Shown: positions 32,516-64,000, counted from the first letter of the stretch. The stretch is 64,000 bases of DNA from Thermoleophilia bacterium (GCA_035686425.1 DASRZL010000126.1:1712-65711); one strand, 5' to 3'. Notes: generated by a model from the letters alone, not told the origin. Made by a program: numbers and translations.

Positions 32516-32665
32516 GAACCTGAAGGAGCGACCCCGGGGCGCCGGCCGCCATGCGGCGCCGGCGCCCCGCGGAGCCCTTCTGGGCTCCGCTTCGACCGGC
32601 GACTCGTCCGGCCTGCCGGTCGCTCCCCGTCCGCGGCGCCCCGCGCGCCGCGCTGGAGGTACACG

Positions 32666-33307: not shown

Positions 33308-33340
33308 TCACCCCTGACGACCGTAAACGAGAGGGAAGCC

Positions 33341-34204: not shown

Positions 34205-34372
34205 TCGCGGGGCCGGCGGCGGGCGCGGCGGCCCTCCGGGCCGCGCTACCCGCCGCCGGCCAAGTATGCTTCACTGAATCCAGACTGAAGACGCAGATGG
34301 GAAGGAGGGCGGCCGGACTGGTGCGCCATGGCCGCCCGACGAACGCGGAAGTGCGAAGGTGGAGTTGATGTG

Positions 34373-34924
34373 ATGCCCAGCCCAGCAGTGCCCTCCAAGC
34401 CTGCCGCGACCGGGGGAGGAGCCCCCGGGGCGGACGTCGACCTCGAGCAGGTCCAGACGCTCGTCGCGGAGATCGACCCCCACGGCAACCTGATCGCGCT
34501 GCTGCAGCGCGCCCAGGCTGTCTTCGGCTATCTGCCGGAGCCGGTCGTCGACGAGATCGCCCGGCTGAGCGGCGTCCCGGCCTCGCGCATCTACGGCATC
34601 ATCACCTTCTACGCCCAATTCTCCACGGTCCCCAGCGGGCGGCACAAGATCTTCGTCTGTCACGGTACAGCCTGTCACGTGGCCGGCGCGACGCGCATCA
34701 CCGAGGCGCTCGAGCAGGAGCTCGAGGTCGGCGACGGCGAGACCACGGCCGACAGGGAGTTCACGCTCGGCTCGGTCGCCTGCATGGGCGCCTGCTCGCA
34801 GGCGCCCGTCATGCGCGTCGAAGAAGAGACCTACGGCAACCTCAGCGCCGACGAGACGCGGAAGATCGCGCGCAAGCTCCTGGCCGAGGTGCTCGAGGAG
34901 CGCGGGGGCGATGGCGATGCCTGA
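34373..34924 (+). CDS. NuoE/HoxE-like 2Fe-2S thioredoxin-like subunit of a NAD(P)H-dependent diaphorase
   Basis: CHGTAC...C...C 2Fe-2S motif (VCHGTACHVAG, ACMGACSQAP); overlaps the NuoF-like gene. Confidence 0.75.
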   Translation: MPSPAVPSKPAATGGGAPGADVDLEQVQTLVAEIDPHGNLIALLQRAQAVFGYLPEPVVDEIARLSGVPASRIYGIITFYAQFSTVPSGRHKIFVCHGTACHVAGATRITEALEQELEVGDGETTADREFTLGSVACMGACSQAPVMRVEEETYGNLSADETRKIARKLLAEVLEERGGDGDA

Positions 34925-36872: not shown

Positions 36873-37056
36873 CTTTACTGCGCGGACCCCTTGCCTTCCG
36901 GCATTCCTTGCGCATATCTTTCGCTCGGTGATCAATCTGCGTCACGATCGATACCGCGGACCGAGGGGGTGGACCACACAGCGACAGTCGTGAGAACCAG
37001 TAGTAAGCGGATTGTCGCCGGGGCACGGCCGGGAGTCCGCCAACAAGGGGGGTAGT

Positions 37057-38682
37057 GTGGCAGAAGAACTCGCTTTCGCACGAAAGGCCAGCGGCCTGGT
37101 CCGCGGCCTCTCCATGACCGACGCCATCGCCGTCGGCATGATGAACCAGGGCATCACGCCCAGCATCTGGACGATGATCACCTGGGGCCTCGGCACCTAC
37201 CTGACCGGTAACCTGCTCTGGGCCAGCATCATCTCGCTCGTGCTCGTCGGCTTCGGCTTCCCGCTCGTCTGGGGCGTGCTCTCCGGGAGCATGCCGCGCT
37301 CGGGCGGTGAGTACATCTACAACTCGCGCATCATCCACCCGATCGTCGGCATCGCCGAGAGCTTCGGCAACGCCTTCGTGATGATCTTCTGGGTCTACAT
37401 CCTGGCGCCGTGGATCGCCGACCCCGGGCTCGTGATCTTCGCCGAGTACCAGGGCTGGACCTGGCTCTACGACTCGGCCACCGGAGCCTTCTTCGGCGGC
37501 CTCTCTTACGACTGGGGCGTGTTCGTCGTCGCCACCGTCTCCAACATCATCGCCTTCTTCACGGTCGTCTTCGGCATGAAGATCTTCGCCACCGTGCAGA
37601 AGACGATCATGGGCTTCGCCCTCGGCGGCGCCGCCGTGGTCACCGGGGCGATCATGTTCAGCAGCAAGGACGGCTTCGCCGAGAAGTGGGACGCGATCGC
37701 CGCCCAGTACGACTCGCTCGCCTACTCCGAGGTCGTGCCCGCGGTGTCGGCCGCCATCGGCGAGGCGGTGCCGACGAGCTCGACCTTCTACGGCACCCTC
37801 GGCGTCATGGTCGCCGGCTCGTGGCTGTTCGCCTACGCCTACTTCTGCGTCTTCGTCGCCGGCGAGGTCAAGCGCCCCGACAAGACGCTGATCACGGCCA
37901 ACTTCATCGCCATCCTGATCCCCGCCTGCTTCATGATCTGGACGGCGCTGGCGATGTACCGGACGATGCCCTTCGACTTCATCTCGGCGACCGCCTGGAT
38001 CGACAACAACGGCGGCATCGAGGGCTACAACCTGCCCTACCTGCCGAGTTACATGAGCCTCGCCTACATCGCCCACTCGAACTGGTTCATCGCCCTGGCG
38101 GCGAGCGGTTCCTACATCCTCTTCACCTTCTGGTATCTCTCGCTCAGCTACCTCGCCTTCCCGCGCATCATCTTCGCCTGGGGCATGGACCGCATGGGTC
38201 CCAAGTGGTTCACCTCGATCAACCCGCGGTGGGCGAGCCCGGTGAAGAACTACATCCTCTGCTTCGTCCTCTGCCAGGGTGCGATCGCGCTCTACACCTT
38301 CTGGCTGGGCAGCTACATGCAGGGCCTCACCGTGACCGGCATGGAGATCGTCTCGGTCTGGGGCGTGACCACCATCGCCGCGCTCATCTTCCCCTACGTG
38401 AAGCGCGCCAAGGGCATCTGGGAGTCCTCGCCCTACCGCACCTGGAAGTTCCTCGGCGTGCCGCTCGTCTCCTGGGGCGCCCTGGCTTCTCTGGTCTACC
38501 TGGGCATCCTCTTCTACTTCCTCATCTTCACCGAGGAGATGAAGGACTCCAACGGCCAGTCGTGGATCCTCTACGGCATCGTCTGGATCATCGGTATCCT
38601 CTGGTACTTCTTCTGGGCGGCGCGCAGCAAGAGCGTCGGCGTCGACGTCGGTATGACCTACGGGGAGCTGCCGCCGGAGTGA
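37057..38682 (+). CDS. APC superfamily amino acid/polyamine transporter
   Basis: About 540 aa, 12+ TM helices; GTG start chosen by homology with paralog start MAEELAFARKASGLVRGLSM. Confidence 0.7.
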   Translation: MAEELAFARKASGLVRGLSMTDAIAVGMMNQGITPSIWTMITWGLGTYLTGNLLWASIISLVLVGFGFPLVWGVLSGSMPRSGGEYIYNSRIIHPIVGIAESFGNAFVMIFWVYILAPWIADPGLVIFAEYQGWTWLYDSATGAFFGGLSYDWGVFVVATVSNIIAFFTVVFGMKIFATVQKTIMGFALGGAAVVTGAIMFSSKDGFAEKWDAIAAQYDSLAYSEVVPAVSAAIGEAVPTSSTFYGTLGVMVAGSWLFAYAYFCVFVAGEVKRPDKTLITANFIAILIPACFMIWTALAMYRTMPFDFISATAWIDNNGGIEGYNLPYLPSYMSLAYIAHSNWFIALAASGSYILFTFWYLSLSYLAFPRIIFAWGMDRMGPKWFTSINPRWASPVKNYILCFVLCQGAIALYTFWLGSYMQGLTVTGMEIVSVWGVTTIAALIFPYVKRAKGIWESSPYRTWKFLGVPLVSWGALASLVYLGILFYFLIFTEEMKDSNGQSWILYGIVWIIGILWYFFWAARSKSVGVDVGMTYGELPPE

Positions 38683-39611: not shown

Positions 39612-41267
39612 ATGGCTGAAGAACTAGCGTTTGCTCGCAAAGCCAGCGGCCTGGTCCGCGGCCTCTCCATGTGGGACGCGTTCGGCGTCGGGTTCATGAA
39701 CCAGGGGCTCACGCCCTCGATCTGGGTCATGACCAGCCTCGGCGTCGGCGTCTACCTGGGCGGCAACCTCGTCTGGGCGACCATCATCTCGATGATCCTC
39801 GCCGGCATCGGCTTCCCGATCGTCTGGGGCGTGCTCGGCGGCTCCATGCCTCGTTCGGGCGGCGAGTACATCTACAACTCGCGCATCCTGCACCCCATCG
39901 TGGGCATCGGCGAGTCGTTCGGCAACGCCTTCGTGTGGATCCTCTGGATCTACGTGCTGGCGCCCTGGCTGGCCGACCCCGGCATGGTCATGATGTCGCA
40001 GTTCATGGACTGGTCGTGGCTCTACGACAGCGCCAACGAGACGTTCTTCGGCGGCCTCAGCTACGCGTGGGGCAGCTTCGTCATCGCCACGATCGCCAAC
40101 ATCATCGCGTTCCTGTTCGTGGTGTGGGGCATCAAGTGGTTCGCGCGCATCCAGAAGGTCGTCATGATCTTCGGCATCGGCGGCTGCATCGTCCTGCTCG
40201 GCGCCATCACCTACTACGCCATGAAGCTCGGCCAGACCGGGTTCGTGGAGAGCTGGAACGCCACAGCCACGACGTACGGCTCGATCGACTACGCCGGCTT
40301 CCTCGCGGGGGCCAGCGAAGAGGCCGGTCAGATGATGCCGACCTCCTGGAACTGGTTCGACACGTTCGGCGTCATGGTCGCCGGCTCGTGGCTCTTCGCC
40401 TACAGCTACTGCATCACGTTCATCGCCGGTGAAGTGAAGCGCCCCGACAAGACCATCATCCTGTCGAATCTCTTCGCGATTCTCGTCCCCGGCTTCTTCA
40501 TGCTGTGGGCGGCCCTCGCACTCTACGGCCTGGTCAAGTTCGACTTCTTCTCGGCGACGCAGTTCATCGACAATGCCGGCAGCGACCTCGGCGGCGCCTA
40601 CACCGTGCCGTGGAGTACGAACTTCCTCGGCATCCTCGCCATGGTGACCGCCAACAAGGTCGTCCTGTTCATCTCGGTGCTGTCGTTCCTCGCCTTCGAC
40701 CTGTGGTGGGTCGCGCTCAGCTACCTGGCGTTCCCGCGCATCCTCTTCGCGTGGGGCATGGACCGCATGGGTCCCAAGTGGTTCACGGACATCAACCCGC
40801 GGTTCGCCAGCCCCGTGAAGAACCACGTCCTCTGCTTCGTCCTCGGCCAGATCATGATCGCCTTGTACGTCTTCTGGCAGAACGAAGCGATGCAGGGCCT
40901 GGCAGTCACGGCCCTGGAGATCTTCTCGGTGTTCGGCGTCACGGCTATCGCGGCGCTGGTCTTCCCCTATGTCAAGCGCGCCAGAGGCATCTGGGACGCG
41001 TCTCCGTACAAGACCTGGAGGCTCGCCGGCATCCCGGTAGTCACGATCGGCGCCATCGTCGACCTGATTTACCTGGGCATCCTGGCCTACTTCTTCTTCT
41101 TCCTGCCCGACCCCGCCAAGCGCCTCGAGGGCTTCACCACCTCGACGGGCCTGGTGATCGCCATCACGTGGATCTTGGGCATCATCTGGTATTTCTTCTG
41201 GAAGCAGCGCAGCAAGAGCGTAGGCGTCGACGTTTCGATGACCTATGGCGAGTTGCCGCCTGAGTGA
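39612..41267 (+). CDS. APC superfamily transporter (tandem paralog of 37057..38682)
   Basis: Near-colinear identity with upstream permease (same N-terminal MAEELAFARKASGLVRGLSM, same C-terminal KSVGVDV.MTYGELPPE). Confidence 0.75.
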   Translation: MAEELAFARKASGLVRGLSMWDAFGVGFMNQGLTPSIWVMTSLGVGVYLGGNLVWATIISMILAGIGFPIVWGVLGGSMPRSGGEYIYNSRILHPIVGIGESFGNAFVWILWIYVLAPWLADPGMVMMSQFMDWSWLYDSANETFFGGLSYAWGSFVIATIANIIAFLFVVWGIKWFARIQKVVMIFGIGGCIVLLGAITYYAMKLGQTGFVESWNATATTYGSIDYAGFLAGASEEAGQMMPTSWNWFDTFGVMVAGSWLFAYSYCITFIAGEVKRPDKTIILSNLFAILVPGFFMLWAALALYGLVKFDFFSATQFIDNAGSDLGGAYTVPWSTNFLGILAMVTANKVVLFISVLSFLAFDLWWVALSYLAFPRILFAWGMDRMGPKWFTDINPRFASPVKNHVLCFVLGQIMIALYVFWQNEAMQGLAVTALEIFSVFGVTAIAALVFPYVKRARGIWDASPYKTWRLAGIPVVTIGAIVDLIYLGILAYFFFFLPDPAKRLEGFTTSTGLVIAITWILGIIWYFFWKQRSKSVGVDVSMTYGELPPE

Positions 41268-47997: not shown

Positions 47998-48201
47998 TTG
48001 GCGCAGGGGAGCGTGAAGTGGTTCAGCAACGAGAAGGGGTATGGCTTCATCGAGCGGGAAGATGGTGACGACCTGTTCGTGCACTACTCCGAGATCACCA
48101 TGGACGGCTACAAGACGCTCGTCCAGGGCCAGCACGTCGAGTTCGAGGTCACCGAGGGCGACAAGGGCCTGCAGGCCTCTACGGTGAGGCCGGTCGCCTA
48201 G
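47998..48201 (+). CDS. Cold-shock protein (CspA family)
   Basis: [18 protein letters not shown]1 motif, 67 aa; TTG start; TAG stop. Confidence 0.85.
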
Positions 48202-51655: not shown

Positions 51656-52915
51656 GTGACCATGACCAGCGATCTCTCCAGCTTCGTCATCGCCAGGGCC
51701 AGGCCGGCCGAGCCGGCGGTCCGCATCGACGACACCACGCTCCGCGACGGGGAGCAGACCGCCGGTGTCGTGTTCAGTAATCACGAGAAGATCCGCATCG
51801 CCAAGCTCCTCGACGAGGTCGGCGTCCATCAGATCGAGGTCGGCATCCCGGCCATGGGCGGCGACGAGAAGGCGACGATCAGGGAGATCGTCGACCTGGG
51901 CCTCGACACGTCGATCCTCGCCTGGAATCGCGCCGTCGTTGACGACGTGCGACACTCTGTCGACTGCGGCGTCGACGCCGTGGCGATCAGCATGTCCGCC
52001 AGCGACATCCACATCGAGCACAAGCTGCAGAAGAGCCGCCAGTGGGTGCTCGACCAGATCCGTGAGTGCGTCGCCTTCGCCAAGGACCAGAACCTGTACG
52101 TCTCCGTGAATGCCGAGGACGCCTCGCGCTCCGACCTCGAGTTCCTGCTGCGCTTCTGCCGGGCGGCCAAGGAGGAGGGCGCCGACCGCCTGCGCTTCTG
52201 CGACACTCTGGGCATCCTCGACCCCTTCGACACGTACAACGTGATCACGTTCCTCAAGAAGGAGGGCGGGCTCGACATCGAGATGCACACGCACGACGAT
52301 TTCGGCATGGCGACCGCCAACGCCTTGGCCGGCATCAAGGCCGGCGCCAACTACGTGAACACCACCGTCAACGGCCTCGGCGAGCGAGCAGGGAACGCCG
52401 CCCTCGAGGAGGTCGTGATGGCGCTCAAGCACCTCGGCAAGGTCGACGTCGGCCTGCAAACGAGCCGCTTCCGCGAGCTCAGCGAGTACGTCGCCGCCGC
52501 CTCCGCGCGGACCATCCCGGCGTGGAAGAGCATCGTGGGCACCAACGTGTTCGCCCACGAGAGCGGCATCCACGCCGACGGCGTCATCAAGAACCCGCTC
52601 AACTACGAGGCCTTCGCGCCCGAGGACGTGGGCCTCGAGCGCCAGATCGTCGTCGGCAAGCACTCCGGCTCGCGCACGATCTACCGCAAGTTCCAGGAGT
52701 TCGGCCTGGAGCTCACGCAGGCCGATTGCCAGGGCGTGCTCGCGCTGGTCCGCAAGACGGCGGTCGAGCTCAAGCGGGCCCTGTTCGACAAGGAGCTCAT
52801 GTACATCTACCAGGACTACCTGGGGCGTCTCGGCGACGCAGTGCCCGTGGGGAAGGACAGAGACGCGGCCGGACCCGATGCTCCCGCCGCCTCTGAATCC
52901 GGAGCCGCGACGTGA
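51656..52915 (+). CDS. Homocitrate synthase / (R)-citramalate synthase (short-form LeuA/NifV family)
   Basis: DTTLRDGEQ, HxHDDFG motifs; lacks the LeuA C-terminal regulatory domain. Confidence 0.75.
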   Translation: MTMTSDLSSFVIARARPAEPAVRIDDTTLRDGEQTAGVVFSNHEKIRIAKLLDEVGVHQIEVGIPAMGGDEKATIREIVDLGLDTSILAWNRAVVDDVRHSVDCGVDAVAISMSASDIHIEHKLQKSRQWVLDQIRECVAFAKDQNLYVSVNAEDASRSDLEFLLRFCRAAKEEGADRLRFCDTLGILDPFDTYNVITFLKKEGGLDIEMHTHDDFGMATANALAGIKAGANYVNTTVNGLGERAGNAALEEVVMALKHLGKVDVGLQTSRFRELSEYVAAASARTIPAWKSIVGTNVFAHESGIHADGVIKNPLNYEAFAPEDVGLERQIVVGKHSGSRTIYRKFQEFGLELTQADCQGVLALVRKTAVELKRALFDKELMYIYQDYLGRLGDAVPVGKDRDAAGPDAPAASESGAAT

Positions 52916-54219
52916 ACAGCATCCGCAGGCACGCTATCGAGCGGGGCGCCGAAGGGGCACCGCTCCGCCCGGCGACGCTTGCCGAGCAGCTGCTCGCCGC
53001 GCACGCCGGGCTCGACTCCGTCGTCCCCGGTCAGATCGTCGTCTGCGACGTCGACGTCGCCATCGCCCAGGACGGCACCGGGCCGCTCGCCATCGAGCAG
53101 ATCGCGGAGCTCGGCATCACCCGTGTGAAGGCGCCGACCTGCGTCTTCTTCATCGACCACGCGGCGCCGGCGCCGCGCAGCGAGCTGGCCAATGCGCAGA
53201 AGACGATCAGAGCCTTCTGCGCATCCTCCGGCGCGACGCTGAGCGACGTCGAAATGGGCGTGTGCCACCAGCGCGTGGCCGAGAGCTTCGCGAAGCCAGG
53301 CGACCTCGTCATCGGCGCCGACTCGCACACCTGCATGGCCGGCGCGCTCGGCGCCTTCGCCACCGGCATGGGCAGCACGGACGTCGCCGTGGGCATGGTC
53401 AGCGGCAAGACGTGGCTGCGCGTGCCGGAGACGTACCGCATCGAGGTCTCGGGCGTGTTCGCGCCAGGCATCGAGGCCAAGGACCTGATGCTCACCCTGA
53501 TCGGCGAGCTCGGCGCCGACGGCGCCACGTACAAGGCGCTGGAGTTCGGCGGACCCGGCATCGACGCGATGCCCATGCACAGCCGCTTCACGCTCAGCAA
53601 CATGGCCGTTGAGGCCGGCGCCAAGTGCGGCCTCATGCCCAGCGACGACGTGACCCGCGCCTATCTCGCCGGGCTGGGTCGCGAGGAGGGCTGGCGAGCG
53701 CTCTTCCCGGACGCCGGCGCGGCGTACGAACGAGTCGTCGAGTTCGACGCCGGCGCGGTCGTGCCCACGGTCGCGCGGCCGCACACCGTGGACAACACTG
53801 CCGCCGCCGCGGAACTCGCGGGCACGAAGGTCGACCAGGTGCTCATCGGCACGTGCACCAACGGCCGCCTCGACGACCTGCGCTCGGCTGCGCGCATCCT
53901 GCGCGGCCGCCGCCGCGCGCCGGGCACGCGCCTCATCGTCACGCCGGCCTCGCAGGCCACCGCCCGCGCCGCGGCCGCCGAAGGCCTGCTGGAGGTCTTC
54001 TGGGAGGCCGGCGCCGTGGTCACCAACCCCGGCTGCGGCGCCTGCGTGGGTATCCACGAGGGCATCCTCGCCGACGGCGAGGTGTGTCTGAGCACGGCCA
54101 ACCGCAACTTCCACGGCCGCATGGGCAATCCGGAGGCCTTCATCTACCTGGGCTCGCCGGCCACCGCGGCCGCGACGGCCGTGGCCGGCGAGATCACCGA
54201 TCCACGCGAGCTACTCTAG
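52912..54219 (+). CDS. 3-isopropylmalate/homoaconitate dehydratase large subunit (archaeal-type LeuC/HacA)
   Basis: Aconitase-family Cys ligands ([15 protein letters not shown]), about 435 aa. Confidence 0.8.
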
Positions 54220-54232
54220 AAGGGAGGGCGTT

Positions 54233-54754
54233 ATGGCCAAGCAGTACAGCGGACCCCCGCAGATGGTCATCGACCCCAGCAAGCGCTACATCGCCACGAT
54301 CGCCACCGACGGCGGCGACATCGTCATCGAGCTGTTCGCCGACAAGGCCCCGCGCACCGTCAACAACTTCGTCTTTCTCGCCCAGGACGGTTACTACGAC
54401 GGCGTGACGTTCCACCGCGTCATCAAGGGCTTCATGGCGCAGGGCGGGGACCCCACCGGTAGCGGCAGCGGCGGCCCCGGCTACCGCTTCGAGGACGAGT
54501 TCCACCCGTCGCTGAAGCACGACGAGCCCGGCATGCTCTCGATGGCCAACGCCGGGCCCGGAACCAACGGTTCGCAGTTCTTCATCACCTACACGGCGAC
54601 GCCACACCTCGATGGCAAGCACACCGTCTTCGGGCGCGTCATCGAAGGCATGGACGTCGTCGACGCGATCCCCGAGCGCGACCCGATGCGGGCCAGGGAG
54701 CCCGGAGTCGCCATGAACTCGGTGGCGATCCGGGAGGAGGAGTGGGTGACGTGA
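54233..54754 (+). CDS. Peptidyl-prolyl cis-trans isomerase, cyclophilin type
   Basis: [21 protein letters not shown] motifs. Confidence 0.85.
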
Positions 54755-55272
54755 GCGAGGAGCTCCTGCTCGGCCGGGCCTGGCTGTTCGGTGACGACAT
54801 CAGCACCGACCACATCGCGCCCGGCCGGCTGTTTCACCTGCGCACGGACCTTCCCGAGCTCGCCAAGCACGTGCTCGAGGACGCGCGGTCGGAGTTCGCC
54901 GGCGAGCTGCGCCCGGGCGACTTCGTCGTGGGCGGCCGCAACTTCGGTCTCGGCTCGAGCCGCGAGCACGCGCCGCGCATCATCAAGATGGCCGGCGTCG
55001 GCGCCGTGCTGGCGCAGAGCTTCGCGCGCATCTTCTTCCGCAACGCGATCAACGTCGGGTTGCCGGTGCTGCAGTGCGACACGTCGGGCATCGGCGAGCA
55101 CGACGACCTCGAGGTCGACCTGGCCGCCGGCGAGGTCCGCGACCTGACTTCCGACGCCGTGATCCCGTTCGTGCCGCTGCCGCCGGTGATGGTGACCATC
55201 CTGAACGACGGCGGCCTGGTGCCCCACGTCAAGAAGCACGGCGGCTTCGCGCTGCCGGGAGGACAAGCATGA
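54742..55272 (+). CDS. 3-isopropylmalate/homoaconitate dehydratase small subunit (LeuD-like)
   Basis: GDDISTDHI...[14 protein letters not shown] aconitase swivel-domain motifs. Confidence 0.8.
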
Positions 55273-56273
55273 CTCATACCGTGACGCTCATCCCCGGCGA
55301 CGGAACCGGCCCGGAACTGGCCGCCGCGCTCGAGATCGTGATCGCCGCCACCGGCGTGCCCATCGTCTGGGAAGTCCACGACGCCGGCCTCGACGTGATG
55401 GAGGAGCACGGCACGCCGCTGCCGCAGCACGTCATCGACTCGATCCGCCGGACGAAGGTGGCGATCAAAGGGCCCATCACGACGCCCGTGGGCAAGGGCT
55501 TCCGCAGCGTCAACGTGGCGCTGCGCAAGGAGCTCGAGCTGTACGCCTGCCTGCGTCCCGCCAAGACGATGAAGGGCGTGCGCACCCGCTTCGACGACAT
55601 CGACCTCGTCGTCGTGCGCGAGAACACCGAGGACCTCTACGCCGGCATCGAGCACATGGTCGGCGAGGACGCCGCGGAGAGCATCAAGATCATCACCCGA
55701 AAGGGTAGCGAGCGGATCGCGCGCTTCGCCTTCGAGTACGCGGTCCGGCACGGCCGCCGCAAGGTCACCGCCGTGCACAAGGCCAACATCATGAAGTGCA
55801 CCGACGGGCTCTTCCTCGCGGTCGCCCGGGAGGTCGCCGAGGCCTACCCGCAGATCGAGTTCGAGGACCGCATCGTCGACAACATGTGCATGCAGCTGGT
55901 GCAGAAGCCCGAGCTCTACGACGTGCTCGTGCTCCCGAACCTCTACGGCGACATCGTCAGCGACCTGTGCGCCGGGCTGATCGGAGGGCTCGGCGTCGCG
56001 CCCGGCGCCAACATCGGCGCGGACGCGGCCGTGTTCGAGCCCGTGCACGGCAGTGCGCCCAAGTACGCCGGTCAGGACAAGGTGAACCCCACGGCGCTGC
56101 TCCGCTCCGGAGTGCTGCTGCTCGAGCACCTCGGAGAGGACGCGGCTGCGAGACGGATGGAAGACGCCATCGCCGCCGTCATCTCCGAGGGCAAGGACGT
56201 GACCTACGACCTCGGCGGCTCTGCCGGCACGTCCGGCATGGCCGCCGCCATCGCTGACCGGATCGCCGGCTGA
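55269..56273 (+). CDS. Homoisocitrate/3-isopropylmalate dehydrogenase family (decarboxylating, NAD-dependent)
   Basis: [13 protein letters not shown]-terminus, NLYGDIVSD metal-site motif; ATG at 55269 after GGAGGACAAGC. Confidence 0.8.
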
Positions 56274-56335
56274 CGGCCGGCCCGGCGGCGGCCGCTGAGC
56301 GGCTGCCGCCCAGCCGGCCCGAGAGGAGGCCTCTC

Positions 56336-56626
56336 ATGGAAGAAGACGAACGCCACATCAACCTGCATGCCACGCCCGAGATGATGGCGGGGGTGTACGC
56401 CAACTTCGCCAACGTCAGTCACTCGGACTACGAGTTCTCGCTCACCTTCGTGCGGCTCGATCACGAAAGCGAGGAGCCCGACGAGATGACTGGCGTCGTC
56501 GTGAGCCGCGTGAACCTGTCGCCGCGCTTCATGAAGGAACTCCTCGACGCCATGAGCGACAATTACGGCAAGTGGCTCCAGGCGGAGAACATCAAGAATC
56601 TGCCGGAGGCTCCCGGCAGGGATTGA
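56336..56626 (+). CDS. DUF3467 domain protein
   Basis: 96-aa acidic protein with GGAGG RBS; motif YANFANVSHSDYEFSLTF typical of DUF3467. Confidence 0.5.
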   Translation: MEEDERHINLHATPEMMAGVYANFANVSHSDYEFSLTFVRLDHESEEPDEMTGVVVSRVNLSPRFMKELLDAMSDNYGKWLQAENIKNLPEAPGRD

Positions 56627-56866
56627 GCGCCGCCACGCGCGTCTGTTCGGGGTGGCGTCGCCGTTCGTGCCAGAATGGCCAAGCGGCTGCACGTTTCGGC
56701 TCCGTTTTGCCCTGCAAGCGGCGCGTTTCGCGGCATTGCCGCACCGCGCTGCGTTGGCTAGAATAGCCAAGCCTGTACTCCCACCGCTCCCGCGTTCTCG
56801 GCCGGGGCTCGCTCCACCGGCGCGCGGGGCGTTGGCGATTTCGTCGCACGTCTTCAGGAGGACGCA

Positions 56867-58657
56867 TTGGACTTCTACCAAGGCAAAGTACTCAGGATCG
56901 ACCTGAGTGCGAGCACCTCCGCCGTCGAGCCGCTCAACATGGAGTGGGCCGAGAAGTACATCGGCGGCAAGGGTCTGCTCCTGCGCTACATGTGGGAGGA
57001 TATACTGCCGGGTCTCGACCCCTGGGCTGCCGACAACCCCGTATACCTCGTGACCGGACCGTTCGCCGGCACCAACGTCAGCACCTCGTCGCGGCTCATC
57101 GTGGGCTGCAAGAGCCCGGTGACCGGCGTCCTCAACGACAGCTACGTGGGCGGTTCGTTCGCCCCGGAGATGAAGTTCGCAGGCTACGACATCATCATCA
57201 TCTCCGGCCGCGCTCCCGAACCGACGGTCGTCACGATCAAGGACGACGTGGTCGAGTTCCGGCCGGCGCAGCCCAAGTACTGGGGCATGAAGACCTCGGC
57301 GATCGAGCAGGCGCTGCGCGACGATTTCGACCCTGGCGCCAAGGTGCTTTCCATCGGCCCGGCCGGTGAGCAGAAGGTGCCGTGGGCCTGCGTCTCCACC
57401 GACCAGTATCACAAGGCCGGACGTGGCGGCCACGGCGCTCTGCTGGGTGACAAGAACCTCAAGGCCGTCGCCATCCGGGGCACGGGCTCTGTGAGCGTCG
57501 GTGACGCCAAGGAGTTCCTCGCCGACGTGTGGCGTATGCACGACGAGTACGTCCTCACCGACGACAACTACTGGGTCCACGAGGAGGGCACGCCGATCCT
57601 CGTCGACCTCGTCAACGGCGCCGGCGCGCTGCCGACCCGCAACTGGTCCGAGGGCGAGTTCGAGGGCGCCGGCAGCATCAATTCGGAGTCGTTCCAGAAG
57701 ATCCGTCTCAAGAAGCGCGCCTGCTACCAGTGCGCCATCGCGTGCCGCAACTTCCATGGGGTGGAGCAGGGCGGCGAGATGGTGCAGGGGGAGGGTCCCG
57801 AGTACGAGACCATCGCCCTGTGCGGCTCCAACTGCGGCATCGGCGACATCGCCGCCCTGGTGCGCTTCAACGAGCTCTGCGACGAGTGGGGGATGGACAC
57901 CATCTCGACCGGCTCCGTCCTCGGCCTCGCCATGGACCTCACCGAGAAGGGCATCAAGGACTTCGGCGTACGCTTCGGCGACGTCGACGGCTACCTCGGG
58001 GCGCCGGAGCTCATGGCGACCCGCACCGGTGTCGGCGAAGAGCTGGCTCTCGGCGCGAAGCATCTGGCCGAGAAATACGGCGTCTCGGAGCTGGCCATGG
58101 AGGTCAAGAACCTCGAGCTGCCGGGCTACGACCCGCGCGGCACCTTCGGCATGAGTCTCTCGTACTCGACCTCCGACCGGGGTGGCTGCCACATGCGCTC
58201 CTACCCCGTGGGCGACGAGATCATCACCGGCGACGAACCCGCCGACACGATGGAGGGCAAGGCGGCCTACAACATCAACGGCCAGAACTTCTCGTCGATG
58301 AAGTACCTCGGCATCTGGTGCGACTTCTGGGCCATCGATCTCGATCAGATGAGCCAGCTGCTCAAGCACCTCTGGAAGCGCGAGGTGACCGAAGAAGAGC
58401 TCGCCACCGCGGGCGAGCGTGTCTGGAACCTCGGCCGGCTTTTCAACCTTCGCGAGGGCATGACGGCGGCCGACGACTATCTGCCGGAGCTGCTCCTCAC
58501 CAAGCCCCACAAGAAGGGTCCGTCGGCCGGTCGCGTAATCGGCACGGAGGCCTTCGCTGAGAAGACGCAGGAGTACTACCGCCTCCGCGGCTGGGACGAG
58601 AACGGCGTCCCCACCGAAGACAAACTCGCCGAGCTCGGCGTCGACGTCCGCCTCTAG
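56867..58657 (+). CDS. Aldehyde:ferredoxin oxidoreductase (tungsten-containing AOR family)
   Basis: N-terminal GKVLRIDLS, 4Fe-4S ligands (C..C...C), pterin-binding motifs; TTG start after AGGAGGA; TAG stop. Confidence 0.85.
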   Translation: MDFYQGKVLRIDLSASTSAVEPLNMEWAEKYIGGKGLLLRYMWEDILPGLDPWAADNPVYLVTGPFAGTNVSTSSRLIVGCKSPVTGVLNDSYVGGSFAPEMKFAGYDIIIISGRAPEPTVVTIKDDVVEFRPAQPKYWGMKTSAIEQALRDDFDPGAKVLSIGPAGEQKVPWACVSTDQYHKAGRGGHGALLGDKNLKAVAIRGTGSVSVGDAKEFLADVWRMHDEYVLTDDNYWVHEEGTPILVDLVNGAGALPTRNWSEGEFEGAGSINSESFQKIRLKKRACYQCAIACRNFHGVEQGGEMVQGEGPEYETIALCGSNCGIGDIAALVRFNELCDEWGMDTISTGSVLGLAMDLTEKGIKDFGVRFGDVDGYLGAPELMATRTGVGEELALGAKHLAEKYGVSELAMEVKNLELPGYDPRGTFGMSLSYSTSDRGGCHMRSYPVGDEIITGDEPADTMEGKAAYNINGQNFSSMKYLGIWCDFWAIDLDQMSQLLKHLWKREVTEEELATAGERVWNLGRLFNLREGMTAADDYLPELLLTKPHKKGPSAGRVIGTEAFAEKTQEYYRLRGWDENGVPTEDKLAELGVDVRL

Positions 58658-58669
58658 GAAGGGAATCCG

Positions 58670-59170
58670 ATGCCCCACGTGATGATCAGCAGGAAGAAGT
58701 GCACCGGGTGCCACATGTGCGAGCTGGCGTGCTCGGCCCACCACGAGAACGCCTACCGGCCGTCGGTCGCGCGCCTCTTCTCGGAGTGCAATCCGACCAC
58801 CGCCGAGATCAAGGGTCACACCTGCCTCCAGACCGGCTGCTCCAAGTGCCAGGAGGTCTGCCCGAACGACGCCATCGTGACCAAGAGGATCACGGTGACC
58901 CCCAAGGGCTTCTTCGAGAGCAAGGAGAAGGTCGGGGACACGGTGGACGGCTACGTCCTCGTCGTCGAGGAAGACAAGTGCAACAACTGCGGGGACTGCT
59001 ACGAGGTGTGCCCCACCGGCGTCATCCACGAGCACCCCGACCGCGAGGTCGCCTTCAAGTGCGACCTCTGCGGCGGCGAGCCGCAGTGCATCGCCTTCTG
59101 CCAGAACAAGTACGTGTACGCCGTCGACCTCAAGGTCGACAAGATGGACAAGGAACTGGCGAAGGCCTGA
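58670..59170 (+). CDS. 4Fe-4S dicluster ferredoxin-domain protein (AOR-associated)
   Basis: Multiple CxxCxxCxxxCP motifs. Confidence 0.75.
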   Translation: MPHVMISRKKCTGCHMCELACSAHHENAYRPSVARLFSECNPTTAEIKGHTCLQTGCSKCQEVCPNDAIVTKRITVTPKGFFESKEKVGDTVDGYVLVVEEDKCNNCGDCYEVCPTGVIHEHPDREVAFKCDLCGGEPQCIAFCQNKYVYAVDLKVDKMDKELAKA

Positions 59171-59172
59171 GC

Positions 59173-59442
59173 GTGGCGAAGGTCACGGTCAAGCTTCCCG
59201 TCGGCGCGGTGACCGCGAGCGGCCTCTCGGAGGTCGCGGTCGAGGCCGCCACGGCCGGCGAGGCGCTCGACAAGGCGATCGCCGTCGAGGCCAGCATCCG
59301 CTCACGGGTGTACCGCGACGACGGGCGCATGTACGCGGGCGTCTTCGTCGGCGGTCGCAACGTCAAGCTTGTCGGCGGCCTCGACGCCGAGCTCAAGGAC
59401 GGCGACGTCCTTCGGATCGTGCCGCCGATCTCGGGCGGCTGA
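59173..59442 (+). CDS. MoaD/ThiS family ubiquitin-like sulfur-carrier protein
   Basis: 89 aa, beta-grasp pattern, terminates in a GG dipeptide (PPISGG). Confidence 0.65.
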   Translation: MAKVTVKLPVGAVTASGLSEVAVEAATAGEALDKAIAVEASIRSRVYRDDGRMYAGVFVGGRNVKLVGGLDAELKDGDVLRIVPPISGG

Positions 59443-59531
59443 CCGGGGATCGAGCCGCCGGGCGGGCAGCACTGGACGGGGCGGGCGCTCGTGAGGAGCG
59501 CCCGCCCCGTTCTCATTGGTACACTGGACCC

Positions 59532-60194
59532 ATGGAAGAGCGCGGCCACAGATCCAGGCTCGAGCTGACGGGGCTCGCCGACGCCGTCCACGGCCGGGCG
59601 AGCGTGCGCCGCTACGCGCCGGAGCGCGTCCCGCGCGAGGACGTCGCCGCCATGGTCGGCCTCGCCGTCCGCGCGGCCAACGCCGGCAACGCGCAGATGT
59701 GGCGCTTCATCGCCGTGGAGGACGCCAATCTGCGCGCGGCGATGAAGGACGCCGTGGACGCGGCCCTCGACGTCATGGCCGCGTGGCCGGAGGCCGAGGG
59801 CATGGAGAAGGAGCTCAGGTCGTATCGCGCCTACTCCACCTTCTTCGCCGGCGCGCCGCTCGTGATGGCGATCGTCGGCCTGCCCTACGGCTCGGTCGCC
59901 GACCGGCTGTTCGATGCACGCGGCACTCCTCGCGACGAACGCGACCGTCTGCGCGCCCGTCCGGACCTGCAGAGCATCGGCGCCGCCGTGCAGCTGCTCT
60001 GCACGGGCGCGCACACCATGGGCTACGGCTCGTGCTGGATGACCGCGCCGGTTCTGGCCGCGCCGGCCATCGAGGCGCTGCTTGGCGTGGAGCCTCCGGC
60101 GGCTCTGGTCGCGGTGGTCCCCATCGGCCGGCCCGCCTCGCCGCCAAGGCCGTCCTCGCGCCGTCCCGTCGAGGACGTCCTCGAGTTCCGGTGA
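59532..60194 (+). CDS. Nitroreductase family protein
   Basis: RASVRRY, ...NAQ.W.F motifs of NADH/FMN nitroreductase fold. Confidence 0.7.
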   Translation: MEERGHRSRLELTGLADAVHGRASVRRYAPERVPREDVAAMVGLAVRAANAGNAQMWRFIAVEDANLRAAMKDAVDAALDVMAAWPEAEGMEKELRSYRAYSTFFAGAPLVMAIVGLPYGSVADRLFDARGTPRDERDRLRARPDLQSIGAAVQLLCTGAHTMGYGSCWMTAPVLAAPAIEALLGVEPPAALVAVVPIGRPASPPRPSSRRPVEDVLEFR

Positions 60195-60306
60195 CCGCGC
60201 CGGTGCGCTTGCCAGCCCCTCTCGGCCCTCGGTACACTCCCGGGGCGCGGCGCCCCGGCGCTGTTCGGTACTCTTCAGCGGCCACAGCGAACGGGAGGAA
60301 CGTCCT

Positions 60307-61377
60307 GTGAACCACCCCGGCGTCTCGATCGGCGGTCTCTGCTCGCGCATCCTCCAGGGCGCCGTCCCGGACGAGGGCGACCTCGAGTCGCTGCTGCGCG
60401 CAGGCGACGAGGCGCCGCTCGTGTTCGCTGCCGCGCGCGAGATGCGCGCGCGGCAGTCCGGCGACGCGGTCTTCCTGTATGGCTTCGTGTACTTCTCCAC
60501 GTACTGCCGCAACGAGTGCGCCTTCTGCTTCTACCGCGCGGACAACGAAGAGAGCCCGCGCTACCGCAAGACCACGGACGAGGTGGTCGCGATCTGCCTC
60601 GACCTCGCCGAGTCCGGCGTCGTCCTGCTCGACCTCACCATGGGCGAGGACCCCGTCATCCACGACGATCCCGGCCACGCCGCGCTGGTGGAGCTCGTCG
60701 CCGCCGTAGCGGACGGCGCCGGGCTGCCGGTCATGGTGTCGCCGGGTGTCCTCCCGGAGGCCGCGCTGGGCCAGATCAGCGCGGCCGGGGCGGACTGGTA
60801 CGCGCTGTATCAGGAGACGCACACGCGGGAGCTGTACGACCGCCTGCGCGTGGGGCAGCCGTTCGAGGAGCGCGGCGCTGCAAGAGACGCGGCCCGGCGG
60901 GCCGGTCTGCTCGTCGAAGACGGCCTCCTCACCGGCATCGGCGACTCGGCCGCCGACCGCGCCCGCTCGATCGTGGCGATGCGGGAGGCCGGCTGGGAGC
61001 AGGTGCGCGTCATGACCTTCGTCCCTCAGGCGGGCACGCCCCTCGAGGACGTGCGCCCGCTGGGCGACGCGGACGAGTTGCTCACCATCGCCGCCATGCG
61101 GCTGGCGATGCCCGACCGCTTCATCCCGGCTTCGCTGGACGTGGACGGTATCGCCGGCCTGGAGCGGCGGCTCGAGGCGGGGGCGAACGTGGTCACGTCG
61201 ATCGTGCCACCGACGGTCGGCCTCGCCGGCGTCTCGCAGGCGGAGCTCGACATCGACGAGGGCTACCGGACGGTACACGGCGTCCTGCCGCACCTCGCTC
61301 GTCTGGGGCTTCGTCCCGCCGGCGTCGACGAGTACCGCGAGCGCATGCGCACGGTGCGCGCCGCCGCGGCGCGGTGA
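60307..61377 (+). CDS. pylB: 3-methylornithine synthase PylB (radical SAM lysine mutase)
   Basis: CRNECAFC radical-SAM motif embedded in FVYFSTYCRNECAFCFY, plus LDLTMGEDP, ALYQETH..ELY..LRVGQ, VRVMTFVPQAGTPLE, IPASLD..GI.G...LEAGANVVTSI blocks that track archaeal PylB almost residue by residue; GTG start after GGAGG. Confidence 0.8.
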   Translation: MNHPGVSIGGLCSRILQGAVPDEGDLESLLRAGDEAPLVFAAAREMRARQSGDAVFLYGFVYFSTYCRNECAFCFYRADNEESPRYRKTTDEVVAICLDLAESGVVLLDLTMGEDPVIHDDPGHAALVELVAAVADGAGLPVMVSPGVLPEAALGQISAAGADWYALYQETHTRELYDRLRVGQPFEERGAARDAARRAGLLVEDGLLTGIGDSAADRARSIVAMREAGWEQVRVMTFVPQAGTPLEDVRPLGDADELLTIAAMRLAMPDRFIPASLDVDGIAGLERRLEAGANVVTSIVPPTVGLAGVSQAELDIDEGYRTVHGVLPHLARLGLRPAGVDEYRERMRTVRAAAAR

Positions 61378-61381
61378 GCGC

Positions 61382-62626
61382 ATGCGCCTCCTGATCGTCG
61401 GCGGCAAGCTGCAGGGCACCGAGGCCGCGTACCTCGCCGCCAAGGCCGGGTGGGAGACTGTGCTCATCGACCGGCGCGAGGCTCCTCCCGCGGCCGGGCT
61501 GACCGATGCGCACGTGATCGCCGACGTCACTGCGGATGAGGCGCGCACGCGGAGCCTCGTAGCCTCGTGTGACGCCGTGCTGCCCGCCTGTGAGGACGAG
61601 CCCACCCTGGCGTGGCTCGCCGAGCGCGTCCCGGCGTGGGGCGTGCCGTTCCTGTTCGACCTCGACGCCTATCGCGTGACGGCGTCGAAGCTGGCGTCGC
61701 GGAGGCTCTTCGCCGAGCTGGATGTGCCCCGCCCGGGTGATTGGCCGGGCTGCGGCCTCCCCGCAGTGATCAAGCCGAGCACGGCGAGCGGGAGCGAGGG
61801 CGTCGTCGTCGCCCACGACAAAGCCGAGCTGGAGGCGGCCCGGAGCGAGCTGGTGGCCGCCGGGCACGACGTGGTCACCGAAGAGTACGTGGCCGGCCCC
61901 TCACTCTCACTCGAGGTGCTGGCGTGGGGCGGAAGGGCCGTACCGCTCCAGGTGACTGGCCTCGAGTTCGACGCGACCTATGACTGCAAGCGTGTGGTGG
62001 CGCCGGTAGGGGAGGCCGCCGGCGGAGCGCCCGCGTCCGCCGGCCCCGGCGGCGCCTGCGACTGGGATGCCGCCGTCGCCGGCGGCGTCCTCGATGCCTT
62101 CGACGCGGCCAGCGTGCGCGTGGCGGAAGGCCTCGGCCTCAACGGCCTCATGGACGTGGAGGTGATGGTGAGCGGCACGGCGCCGAAGCTGCTCGAGATC
62201 GACGCGCGGCTCCCCAGCCAGACCCCGACGGCGGTCTACTGGTCGAGCGGGCTCAACGTCGTCGAGTTGCTGGCCGAGACCGTGCGCACAGGGGCGCCGC
62301 CGGCCGTCGATCGCGCGGCGCGGCGCGCGTGCCTCTATCAGCACGTGCGCGCCTCCGGGGGTCTGCTCGAAGTCCTCGGCGAGCATGTGATGGGGAGTGC
62401 CGGTCCCCTGCGCCTCGTGCCGGGGTTCTTCGGCGCGGACGAGGCGCTCACTGACTACGCCTCCGGGCGCCCGGAGTGGGCGGCGACGTTGATCGTCGCG
62501 GCCCCGACGGTCGATGAGGCGCGCCGCCGCGCCGGGGACACCGTGGAAGCACTGGCTCGATACGAGAACCTTCAAGCTATACTTGAAGGAGAGACATCAC
62601 CTGCCGACGAAGGAGGTCCCCGATGA
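61382..62626 (+). CDS. pylC: 3-methylornithine--L-lysine ligase PylC (ATP-grasp)
   Basis: LLIVGGKLQGTEAAYLAAKAG N-terminus and EIDARLPSQTPTAVYWSSGLNVVELL block match PylC; ATP-grasp fold. Confidence 0.8.
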   Translation: MRLLIVGGKLQGTEAAYLAAKAGWETVLIDRREAPPAAGLTDAHVIADVTADEARTRSLVASCDAVLPACEDEPTLAWLAERVPAWGVPFLFDLDAYRVTASKLASRRLFAELDVPRPGDWPGCGLPAVIKPSTASGSEGVVVAHDKAELEAARSELVAAGHDVVTEEYVAGPSLSLEVLAWGGRAVPLQVTGLEFDATYDCKRVVAPVGEAAGGAPASAGPGGACDWDAAVAGGVLDAFDAASVRVAEGLGLNGLMDVEVMVSGTAPKLLEIDARLPSQTPTAVYWSSGLNVVELLAETVRTGAPPAVDRAARRACLYQHVRASGGLLEVLGEHVMGSAGPLRLVPGFFGADEALTDYASGRPEWAATLIVAAPTVDEARRRAGDTVEALARYENLQAILEGETSPADEGGPR

Positions 62627-63429
62627 CACGACTGACCGAGACCGACGTCACTACGCTGACGCGGGACCTGGACGCGTTCGAGGACCGTCTGAGGGACGTC
62701 ACGGGGTTCGGCCTTCGGGGGATCGCGCTGCGTACCGCCACCGACGAGGCGCGGTGCGTCCTGCTTCGCGGCGCGCGTATCGCCGCCGTCCCGATGTCAT
62801 CGGGGCAAGGATTCATCCCCGGGTTCTCCGAGTGCGTCGTGGCGATCCTCTCGCACCTCGGCTGTGACGCCTGGGCGACGACACAGCCGGACGTGCGCGG
62901 CATCCAGGCGGGCGTCGCCGCCGGCGCCGACGTCCTCTTCCTTGCCGACGACCACCGCTTTATCGCCCTGAACGTGGCCGGGGGCTGCACCGTGGACGAC
63001 GACCCCGCGACCGCGGATGGGTACGTCACGGCGCTGCAAGCCGCCGCGGGTGGATTGCCGGAGCGCCGGGTCCTGCTCCTCGGCCTGGGTCCTGTCGGCC
63101 GGGCCGCCGCGCGACGACTCGTCAGCCGGGGCGCGACGGTGCTCGTCGTCGAGCCCGACAAGGAGCGCTTGGCGGCAGCGCTCGAGGTCGGGCTGAAGGT
63201 CGAGCCCGTCGAGCTGGCCACCGGACTGGAGAGCTGCGACCTGATCTTCGACGCGTCGCCGGCCGCCGGCATCATCGACGCCGCAGACATCAGGCCGGAG
63301 GCGATCGCCGCCGTCCCCGGCCTGCCCTCGGCCTTCACGCCGGCGGCGCAAGAGGCTCTCGGCGTGCGTCACATCCACGAGCCGCTGGCGATCGGCGTGG
63401 CTGTCATGGCGGTGCGCGCGCTGCTCTGA
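62623..63429 (+). CDS. pylD: Pyrrolysine synthase PylD (3-methylornithyl-N6-lysine dehydrogenase)
   Basis: LTETDV..L..DL...E..LRDVTG.GLRGI N-terminus, LADDHRFIALN, Rossmann LLLGLGPVGRAAARRL, C-terminal EPLAIGVA; ATGA overlap with pylC. Confidence 0.8.
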   Translation: MTRLTETDVTTLTRDLDAFEDRLRDVTGFGLRGIALRTATDEARCVLLRGARIAAVPMSSGQGFIPGFSECVVAILSHLGCDAWATTQPDVRGIQAGVAAGADVLFLADDHRFIALNVAGGCTVDDDPATADGYVTALQAAAGGLPERRVLLLGLGPVGRAAARRLVSRGATVLVVEPDKERLAAALEVGLKVEPVELATGLESCDLIFDASPAAGIIDAADIRPEAIAAVPGLPSAFTPAAQEALGVRHIHEPLAIGVAVMAVRALL

Positions 63430-63469
63430 CGGCCGCGCGCGGCCCGCACGGTGTACAATCGCAGGGCGT

Positions 63470-63542
63470 GGGGGGTCGATCGGAAGGATCAGCGTGGGCT
63501 CTAAACCCACGTAGGCGGGTGTGACTCCCGCACTCCCCGCCA
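63470..63542 (+). tRNA. pylT: tRNA-Pyl (amber suppressor, anticodon CUA), pylT
   Basis: Manual fold: acceptor GGGGGGU/ACUCCCC (one G-U), short D-arm GAUC-GGAAG-GAUC, 6-bp anticodon stem CGUGGG/CCCACG with loop CUCUAAA (anticodon CUA), 3-nt variable loop, T-arm GCGGG-UGUGACU-CCCGC, discriminator G, encoded CCA; near-identical architecture to bacterial (Desulfitobacterium-type) tRNA-Pyl. Confidence 0.8.
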
Positions 63543-63616
63543 GAGCTTCTCCTCGCCGGGAGGATGCGCGGTCGACGACGCGATGTCGGGCAGGCCCCGG
63601 CCGGCTGGGGGCTCCT

Positions 63617-64000
63617 TCAGTCCGTGGCGAAGGCGACGGGGATGCGCACTTCGTTCCGGCGGGAGCCATCCTCCATCGACTGCTCGTAGACGATGAGAGT
63701 GCCGCGCGCCGCCGAAGTGGAGAAGGCGATCTCCTTGGCGAAGCGCCCGCGGCCGGGCGCGCCGAGAGATGCCTGCACGGGCGTGTTCACGACGCGGCGA
63801 CCGGACGTGTCCACCAGCCGTGCGATGAAGGAGCCCTCGTAGACGCTCGCCGTGCCGGCGATCGCAAAGGGGCTCGAGATCACCGCGCCGACGCCGGGCA
63901 TCTCCACGAAGATGGCGGGCTCGTAGTCGGGGAAGTCTTGCCGGCGCCATTCCGTTGCCGGCGAGTCCGCGCTCCCGGCAGCCGGGTATGGCTGATCATC
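63617..64000 (-). CDS. Hypothetical protein, C-terminal part (gene start lies beyond the window end)
   Basis: Open frame converging on pylT; translation ...VYEGSFIARLVD...TLIVYEQS... looks like a beta-rich domain; no family assigned. Confidence 0.4.
   Translation of the reverse strand, partial: DDQPYPAAGSADSPATEWRRQDFPDYEPAIFVEMPGVGAVISSPFAIAGTASVYEGSFIARLVDTSGRRVVNTPVQASLGAPGRGRFAKEIAFSTSAARGTLIVYEQSMEDGSRRNEVRIPVAFATD

Follow-up and report, generated by a model that had tools for sequence, protein, structure and literature searches.

The 64,000-nucleotide (nt) stretch of DNA analyzed here (GCA_035686425.1, DASRZL010000126.1:1712-65711; hereafter the window) carries genes for pyrrolysine (Pyl) biosynthesis and a tRNA-Pyl gene between positions 60,307 and 63,542, and in all likelihood constitutes the upstream half of a complete and functional Pyl system in an uncultured member of the class Thermoleophilia, in which we infer that Pyl is used. 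The host is an uncultured soil actinobacterium (Actinomycetota) of roughly 70% GC that is placed in or adjoining the GTDB order UBA2241. Both GC content and GC content at third codon positions (GC3) were uniform over the entire 64-kb window and the pyl locus. Accounts of Pyl decoding have mostly centered on methanogens, Firmicutes, and deltaproteobacteria.

The three biosynthesis genes were consecutive on the plus strand, comprising pylB (60307-61377) coding for a radical-SAM methylornithine synthase of 356 amino acids (aa), pylC (61382-62626) for an ATP-grasp 3-methylornithine--L-lysine ligase of 414 aa, and pylD (62623-63429) for a 3-methylornithyl-N6-lysine dehydrogenase of 268 aa. A gap of 4 nt separated pylB from pylC, the pylC stop and pylD start overlapped as ATGA, and a 40-nt spacer led from pylD to the tRNA gene. 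Identity was judged by the curated equivalog cut-offs of NCBIfam, and each protein scored above its own: PylB with TIGR03910 (435.5 bits versus 348.2), PylC with TIGR03909 (339.4 bits versus 248.3), and PylD with TIGR03911 (203.7 bits versus 150.05). These scores far exceeded those of the sister families HydE, BioB, Ddl, and DpaA; for PylB, the next best match was HydE at 95.6 bits, followed by BioB (77.9 bits) and ThiH (50.6 bits). A preliminary description of the window had named the same three genes at the same coordinates and had proposed a profile comparison for the radical-SAM protein; the identification was borne out by the cut-offs, and the comparison placed the protein with PylB. Further support came from the radical-SAM CxxxCxxC motif in PylB (YCRNECAFC; Pfam Radical_SAM, 47 bits) and from the N-terminal domain of PylD (Pfam PylD_N, 93 bits). 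On family membership, PylB, PylC, and PylD are therefore classed as true pyrrolysine-biosynthesis enzymes. In the established pathway, pyrrolysine is synthesized from two lysines by these three enzymes, and going by family membership, the same route would operate in this genome.

The tRNA gene, pylT (63470-63542, plus strand), was called by ARAGORN as a 73-nt tRNA-Pyl with a CUA anticodon and an encoded CCA end. This independent call (tRNA-Pyl, cta) agreed with the CUA tRNA that had previously been noted 40 nt past pylD. The cloverleaf of tRNA-Pyl is atypical: its anticodon stem is elongated to 6 bp or more, its variable loop does not exceed 3 nt, one nucleotide links acceptor and D stems, the D-loop has 5 nt, and T-psi-C is missing from the T-loop. 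The minimum-energy fold of pylT (-36.7 kcal/mol) was the Pyl cloverleaf, with 7 bp in the acceptor stem, 1 nt leading to a 4-bp D stem and its 5-nt D-loop, 6 bp plus a seventh covarying pair in the anticodon stem, 2-3 nt in the variable loop, UGUGACU (no T-psi-C) as the T-loop, and the ends GGGGGGU...ACUCCCC-G-CCA. An alignment of 47 tRNA-Pyl homologues (19 distinct sequences) displayed an invariant CUA anticodon, G1, G70 (discriminator), and CCA end; in Desulfitobacterium hafniense, the G73 discriminator and the G1:C72 pair are tRNA-Pyl identity elements. In the same alignment, 99.3% of cells were paired and 10 pairs showed compensatory changes, values that none of 500 shuffles reached, while slid controls gave at most three compensatory pairs. 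The generic Rfam tRNA model remained below threshold on pylT, the best match being tRNA-Sec at 28.8 bits versus a gathering score of 47. A -10-like hexamer, TACAAT (63454-63459, plus strand), preceded the tRNA by 10 nt, and TACAAT, TAGAAT, or TATCAT occurred at equal distance from tRNA-Pyl in most Thermoleophilia loci (L005-L057). As the hexamer recurs at a fixed distance, pylT is probably transcribed from its own predicted promoter. A GC-rich palindrome, GGCCGCGCGCGGCC (63431-63444), lay directly 3' of the pylD stop, and hexamer and palindrome together suggest that pylT is transcribed separately and almost without a leader.

The preliminary description had reported that pylS was missing, which was literally true for the window: a tblastn search with the Methanosarcina mazei PylRS (a query whose catalytic domain exactly matches PDB 2q7e) detected no PylS anywhere in the 64 kb. 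The apparent absence arose because the window ends upstream of both pylSn and pylSc, and the two halves of the synthetase sit past its edge. The exact PylD protein of the window was present on four public metagenome contigs, the longest of which (ENA ERZ27256827, contig k141_637472; L001) was 99.86% identical to window positions 52623-64000 and continued 2.3 kb further. On this extension, a 109-aa open reading frame (ORF), listed without annotation, was identified as pylSn (L001 12020-12349, equivalent to window 64642-64971) by TIGR03912 at 128.8 bits versus a cut-off of 51.15. The gene starts approximately 640 bp after the last base of the window and 1.1 kb downstream of pylT, and its product matched M. 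mazei PylRS residues 5-84 with 38% identity to the N-terminal domain. It also retained the His and three Cys aligned to M. mazei H24, C42, C69, and C72, the zinc ligands. The contig terminated within the first 47 codons of a gene for a pyl-type corrinoid protein.

The catalytic half was found in the closest genome (L006; CAVOVA01, isolate MFD09779.bin.2.149; 96.2% DNA identity to the last 9.4 kb of the window), where pylSc occupied 13197-14057 on the minus strand and scored 321 bits with TIGR02367 versus a cut-off of 178. A PylSc protein (P0013) 98% identical to that of L006 was encoded on contigs of the runs SRR8554512, SRR8554643, and SRR8554511 and of the sister ENA assembly ERZ27256828, and the same three runs also hold contigs with the window's own pylD. 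The P0013 contigs were 96.4% identical to L006 and colinear with it, mapping pylSc to a window-equivalent position of approximately 67.8-68.7 kb on the opposite strand, some 3 kb past pylSn and 4.3 kb past pylT. P0013 was 40% identical to the M. mazei PylRS catalytic domain and retained A302, L305, Y306, L309, R330, N346, Y384, and W417, with C348 replaced by V; in M. mazei numbering, these positions belong to the pyrrolysine pocket. Two independent short-read assemblies, L001 (end 13665) and L080 (end 11870), both broke inside the corrinoid gene, which hints at a repeat or a paralogue confusing the assembly; the corrinoid paralogues in methylamine clusters, however, were only 37-43% identical.

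A scan of one genome per species with PylSn yielded 70 loci, about 66 of which came from metagenome-assembled genomes (MAGs) labelled Thermoleophilia, Actinomycetota, or Actinomycetes. These species-level MAGs, nearly all with the Thermoleophilia label, included Microflora Danica long-read MAGs, the Stordalen Mire MAGs fen_672, palsa_647, and bog_752, the MAG UBA2241, and MAGs from lakes and digesters. The clade shared a gene order that ran AOR, ferredoxin, (ThiS/MoaD-like), nitroreductase, pylB, pylC, pylD, and pylT in its upstream part and continued with Germane/Gmad2 (minus strand), pylSn, radical SAM (minus), corrinoid protein, (SAM methyltransferase), pylSc (minus), amidase (minus), and UppP (minus). 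The tRNA-Pyl followed pylD in 54 of the 55 loci carrying pylBCD. In 48 loci, tblastn detected a PylRS catalytic domain encoded on the opposite strand, and the distance from pylSn to the downstream pylSc ranged from approximately 20 bp to 9 kb in the 45 Thermoleophilia-type loci where both could be placed. In nine loci, pylSc was separated from the corrinoid gene by 1.4-1.7 kb, and this interval contained MarR-like, YceI-like, or aminotransferase genes and no methyltransferases. Ratios of nonsynonymous to synonymous substitution rates (dN/dS) against eight relatives were 0.12-0.25 for pylB, 0.16-0.30 for pylC, 0.13-0.33 for pylD, 0.07-0.21 for pylSn, and 0.17-0.20 for pylSc; this overall range of 0.07-0.33 was obtained over about 0.05-0.8 synonymous substitutions per site and indicates purifying selection on all pyl genes.

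Major differences were evident between this locus and the textbook layouts, as the preliminary description had pointed out from the gene order. In bacteria with a split PylRS such as D. hafniense, the order is pylT-pylSc-pylB-pylC-pylD-pylSn, while archaeal Methanosarcina species have pylT-pylS-pylB-pylC-pylD with a fused PylRS. The D. hafniense-type operon resembles the present locus in holding pylB, pylC, pylD, pylT, and a PylRS divided into PylSn and PylSc, all of which passed the same curated models. It differs from the window's clade in that the latter has pylT after pylD, an inverted pylSc about 3 kb downstream of pylSn, interleaved and unrelated genes (Germane/Gmad2, radical-SAM, corrinoid, and sometimes SAM methyltransferase), and a 70%-GC actinobacterium as host instead of a Firmicute or deltaproteobacterium. 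Likeness to Methanosarcina was found in the PylSc of the window population, which shares 40% identity with the M. mazei PylRS core and keeps the Pyl-pocket residues, whereas the split synthetase, the gene order, and the domain of life set the two apart. Closer parallels were three loci labelled Deltaproteobacteria (L071), Selenomonas (L072), and Mitsuokella (L073), which shared the pylB-pylC-pylD-pylT-pylSn order and a pyl-type corrinoid gene in the cluster, with PylSn 57-67% identical and tRNAs aligning over their full length. In contrast to the window's clade, these loci lacked the radical-SAM and Germane genes, had 51-61% GC, and carried an upstream pylSc in the same orientation, and methyltransferase genes were adjacent in two of them (mtbB with TAG in L071; mtmB with a RamA-like gene in L073). 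Since L071-L073 share pylBCD-pylT-pylSn, the clade-specific features are the displaced, inverted pylSc and the interleaved genes, not the position of pylT.

A Pyl system in a high-GC actinobacterial background had been described beforehand as unusual; the high-GC actinobacterial host was confirmed, but it is less unusual than had been supposed, as such cases are already apparent from NCBI annotation and two published studies. NCBI already names Thermoleophilia proteins as pyrrolysine--tRNA(Pyl) ligase subunits. Two Actinobacteria were counted among 81 PylRS-encoding bacteria, in all of which PylSn and PylSc were separate genes (Guo et al., 2022; PMC9630628). Pyl-type mttB and mtbB were reported as expressed by Stordalen Mire Actinobacteriota MAGs, and the genus Bog-752, placed in the supplement under Thermoleophilia and UBA2241, was separately named as one of the methylotrophs with the highest activity (Ellenbogen et al., 2023; PMC10805028). 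That study differs from the present analysis in reporting truncated target genes and their expression, and the species of the window apparently lies outside its data set; its main text contains neither pylS nor pylB and so leaves the pyl machinery and the arrangement of its genes undescribed. The pyl locus of the window was also present in the MAGs bog_752 (L062) and UBA2241 (L056). In a full-text literature search, "pyrrolysine" and "Thermoleophilia" occurred together only in a soil-geochemistry survey, each word once. The novelty here is modest: the clade is broad (approximately 66 species), and its locus, conserved and dispersed over two strands, harbors a radical-SAM gene.

Many genes of the host still use UAG as an ordinary stop codon. 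The TAG stops at cspA (48199-48201), an aconitase-like gene (54217-54219), and AOR (58655-58657) were checked and found to be real, in line with the earlier observation that these genes end in TAG and that the amber codon has not been globally reassigned. By crude gene calls, TAG ended 2 of 47 window genes and 193 of 822 genes in pooled related loci; TAG depletion was considered as a sign of recoding and dropped, given the small sample, the crude calls, and the wide variation from locus to locus. No gene with a single in-frame TAG was found in the window or up to 10 kb from pylSn on either side in any locus, the hits in the window and L001-L074 being antisense-frame artefacts or adjacent genes in the same frame. 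One such junction joins the AOR stop to a 4Fe-4S ferredoxin start 12 nt further on in the same frame (window 56867-59170) and was shared by nine relatives. An AOR-ferredoxin fusion formed by Pyl read-through was rejected, and the junction appears incidental, because TAG, TGA, or TAA ended AOR across 36 loci with a spacer that was often out of frame.

Candidate target genes were identified elsewhere. MtbB-like and MtmB-like sequences from the flanks of L071 and L073, in which TAG stood where expected, provided seeds. The best matches of high-GC composition to the L071 MtbB seed lay on 61% GC contigs unrelated to the clade, and a strict scan of metagenome contigs for the MtbB motif with G or C at third positions returned no matches. 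The relaxed scan was successful: the MtbB Pyl-site motif was found on 99 stretches of JGI metagenome contigs, 57 of them with at least 66% GC. The latter hold 59 mtbB genes, each with one TAG at codon ~344-356 followed by approximately 120-135 further codons and nearly always a TGA stop. One contig (L148, 69% GC) contained mtbB(TAG), an mttB ORF stopping exactly at position 334 of the MTTB profile, a corrinoid gene, and a class-III aminotransferase gene whose product was 84% identical to the one encoded beside the corrinoid gene of L056, the pyl locus of UBA2241. A second (L189, 70% GC) contained three mtbB(TAG), one mttB(TAG), a corrinoid gene, and a non-Pyl MttB paralogue, and its assembly (ERZ25039603) also holds a pyl locus 97.3% identical to the window (L079).

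In the proposed scheme, pylT would supply the amber-reading tRNA, to be charged jointly by PylSn (tRNA-binding) and PylSc (catalytic), and Pyl would be inserted at the single in-frame UAG of mtbB and mttB, coding for dimethylamine and trimethylamine methyltransferases elsewhere in the genome. Methyl groups would then pass via corrinoid proteins, one of which is encoded within the pyl locus, and finally enter tetrahydrofolate-linked one-carbon (C1) metabolism through the products of fhs, fchA-like, and folD-like genes in the window. These genes belong to a C1 and electron-transfer cluster (window 30806-36809) that includes formate-tetrahydrofolate ligase (fhs; 812 bits versus a cut-off of 652), an FchA-like cyclohydrolase, and FolD-like, NuoE-like, and NuoF-like genes. 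The cluster points to anaerobic, tetrahydrofolate-linked C1 metabolism in the host and fits a route from methyl-corrinoid to tetrahydrofolate.

Several points weigh against a complete and functional system in this exact genome. The pylSc gene was not joined to the window, a gap of approximately 370 bp inside the corrinoid gene remaining between the short-read contigs k141_637472 (ERZ27256827) and k141_4181424 (ERZ27256828). Its assignment to the same genome would follow from its occurrence in the same samples, a matching degree of divergence from L006, and colinearity. No Pyl-dependent methyltransferase gene was detected in the window or within 10 kb on either side of pylSn across the 70 PylSn loci. 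The tie between the high-GC mtbB and mttB contigs and this lineage is circumstantial, consisting of GC content, one 84%-identical neighboring protein, and a shared assembly. In addition, the published Pyl-type genes were credited to unnamed Actinobacteriota MAGs, and Bog-752 was presented only as a very active methylotroph (PMC10805028). Incorporation of Pyl into protein is likewise something we infer from the genes.

These points were weighed against three other explanations. The preliminary description had allowed that orphan pylBCD might make free pyrrolysine or a 3-methylornithine-derived metabolite rather than serve translation, as would fit a 64-kb window with neither PylS nor a Pyl-dependent target gene. 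This is highly improbable in view of the structurally conserved tRNA-Pyl 40 nt past pylD, the presence of pylSn and pylSc at most 5 kb downstream in the same population and in approximately 48 related genomes, and the purifying selection on all these genes; a PylS-less cassette was thus not borne out. Alternatively, the system could be complete but decaying or idle, whether inherited or horizontally acquired, with its targets gone from this genome. The lack of methylamine methyltransferase genes near the 70 PylSn loci, the displacement and inversion of pylSc relative to the canonical operon, and the fragmented pyl genes on some related MAG contigs (probably long-read frameshift errors) would all agree with such a state. 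We nevertheless consider it improbable, since dN/dS values of 0.07-0.33, compensatory changes in the tRNA, and intact active-site residues accompany a locus kept in approximately 66 species, and in-frame TAG does occur in high-GC mtbB and mttB genes, with expression reported for Actinobacteriota.

A last explanation is that the locus is not from Thermoleophilia but from a mis-binned contig of another phylum such as Desulfobacterota. Its probability is very low. Near-identical loci do carry Deltaproteobacteria (L008) and Zixibacteria (L042) labels, and Deltaproteobacteria is also the label of L071, the closest relative beyond the clade; yet the labels Thermoleophilia, Actinomycetota, or Actinomycetes apply to over 60 independent MAGs, which were produced by several projects and include long-read contigs 0.3-2 Mb in length. 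The uniform GC and GC3 across window and locus also argue against mis-binning, as do the 51% GC and different gene order of L071. A complete Pyl system in an uncultured thermoleophilian, of which the window holds the upstream half, remains the favored reading.

A single conserved Pyl locus thus recurs across approximately 66 species-level genomes of uncultured Thermoleophilia, sampled in soils, peat, lake sediments, and anaerobic digesters. This distribution supports a role for these bacteria as anaerobic consumers of di- and trimethylamine, methane precursors for which they would compete with methylotrophic methanogens. For annotation, the pyl genes of the clade are spread over approximately 8 kb on both strands and their methyltransferase targets would lie elsewhere in the genome, such that operon-based detection or a fixed window would wrongly call the system incomplete. 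The clade is also a source of many high-GC variants of PylSn, PylSc, and tRNA-Pyl for use in genetic-code engineering.

The genes interleaved with the pyl genes differed in their degree of constraint. A radical-SAM gene of 292 aa (L001 12363-13241, equivalent to window ~64985-65863; minus strand) of no recognizable subfamily was embedded between pylSn and the corrinoid gene in approximately 50 Thermoleophilia loci and was not found in the non-actinobacterial pyl loci. All its family matches were weak (HpnJ, MJ0865-type, and MnmL; PDB NocN at 19.7 bits), and its dN/dS of 0.10-0.17 indicated strong constraint. That the clade-specific genes between pylSn and pylSc (radical SAM, corrinoid protein, and in some loci SAM methyltransferase) form a functional addition to the Pyl system is a tentative proposal and rather unlikely on present evidence; they may constitute a corrinoid-handling, tRNA- or Pyl-modifying, or methyl-transfer module peculiar to UBA2241-type Thermoleophilia. 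If such a module were functional, abundant soil and peat actinobacteria would have a distinct Pyl-dependent methylamine metabolism. Positions 63617-64000 on the minus strand hold the 3' part of a convergent gene that extends off the window and whose product (311 aa overall) has Germane and Gmad2 domains (Pfam PF10646 and PF10648, assigned on L001). The gene was syntenic in most loci under looser constraint (dN/dS ~0.4); it forms a conserved spacer between pylT and pylSn and probably does not belong to the Pyl system. Directly upstream of pylB, a nitroreductase-family gene (59532-60194, plus strand; Pfam Nitroreductase) was also syntenic in most loci and gave weak FbiB-C and BluB-like NCBIfam matches below cut-off.

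Individual loci in the set showed irregularities. Two contigs with a Thermoleophilia-type locus, L008 (JBLMXT010000229.1, Deltaproteobacteria label) and L042 (CAVTJJ010000002.1, Zixibacteria label), had PylSn 97% and 87% identical, respectively, and are probably mis-binned or mislabelled. The MAG MFD03726.bin.2.9 contained two near-identical contigs, L068 and L069, each with pylSn and the neighboring radical-SAM gene, which could reflect duplication, strain heterogeneity, or a binning artefact. L047 (CAVPIV010000007.1) had 55.6% GC and a PylSn 83% identical to that of the window's population, pylB and pylD were not detected on it, and it may be a rearranged or chimeric contig. At L056 14013-14197, ARAGORN called a tRNA-Pro (88 nt) and a tRNA-Glu (93 nt), likely false positives because both fall inside a class-III aminotransferase coding sequence.

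Other parts of the window contained further metabolic genes. Two paralogous membrane proteins of approximately 550 aa (37012-38682 and 39612-41267) flank an Lrp/AsnC-like gene; their first-codon-position GC was unusually low (~0.50), they had no NCBIfam match, and they appeared permease-like by eye. The amino-acid permease of the methylamine cluster on L190 showed no similarity to either of them at E <1e-10. A cluster at 51656-56273 codes for homocitrate synthase (TIGR02660, 533 bits versus 463), an aconitase large subunit, a peptidyl-prolyl isomerase, an aconitase small subunit, and an isopropylmalate-dehydrogenase-like protein, ending approximately 4 kb upstream of pylB just ahead of the AOR genes. 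It could represent a putative alpha-aminoadipate-type route to lysine; lysine is the sole precursor of pyrrolysine. Finally, a 3-keto-5-aminohexanoate cleavage enzyme-like gene (5225-6055; BKACE family, lysine fermentation) scored 257.6 bits, under the cut-off of 382, and adjoined a branched-chain-type ABC transporter and an IclR-like regulator, both recognized by eye.

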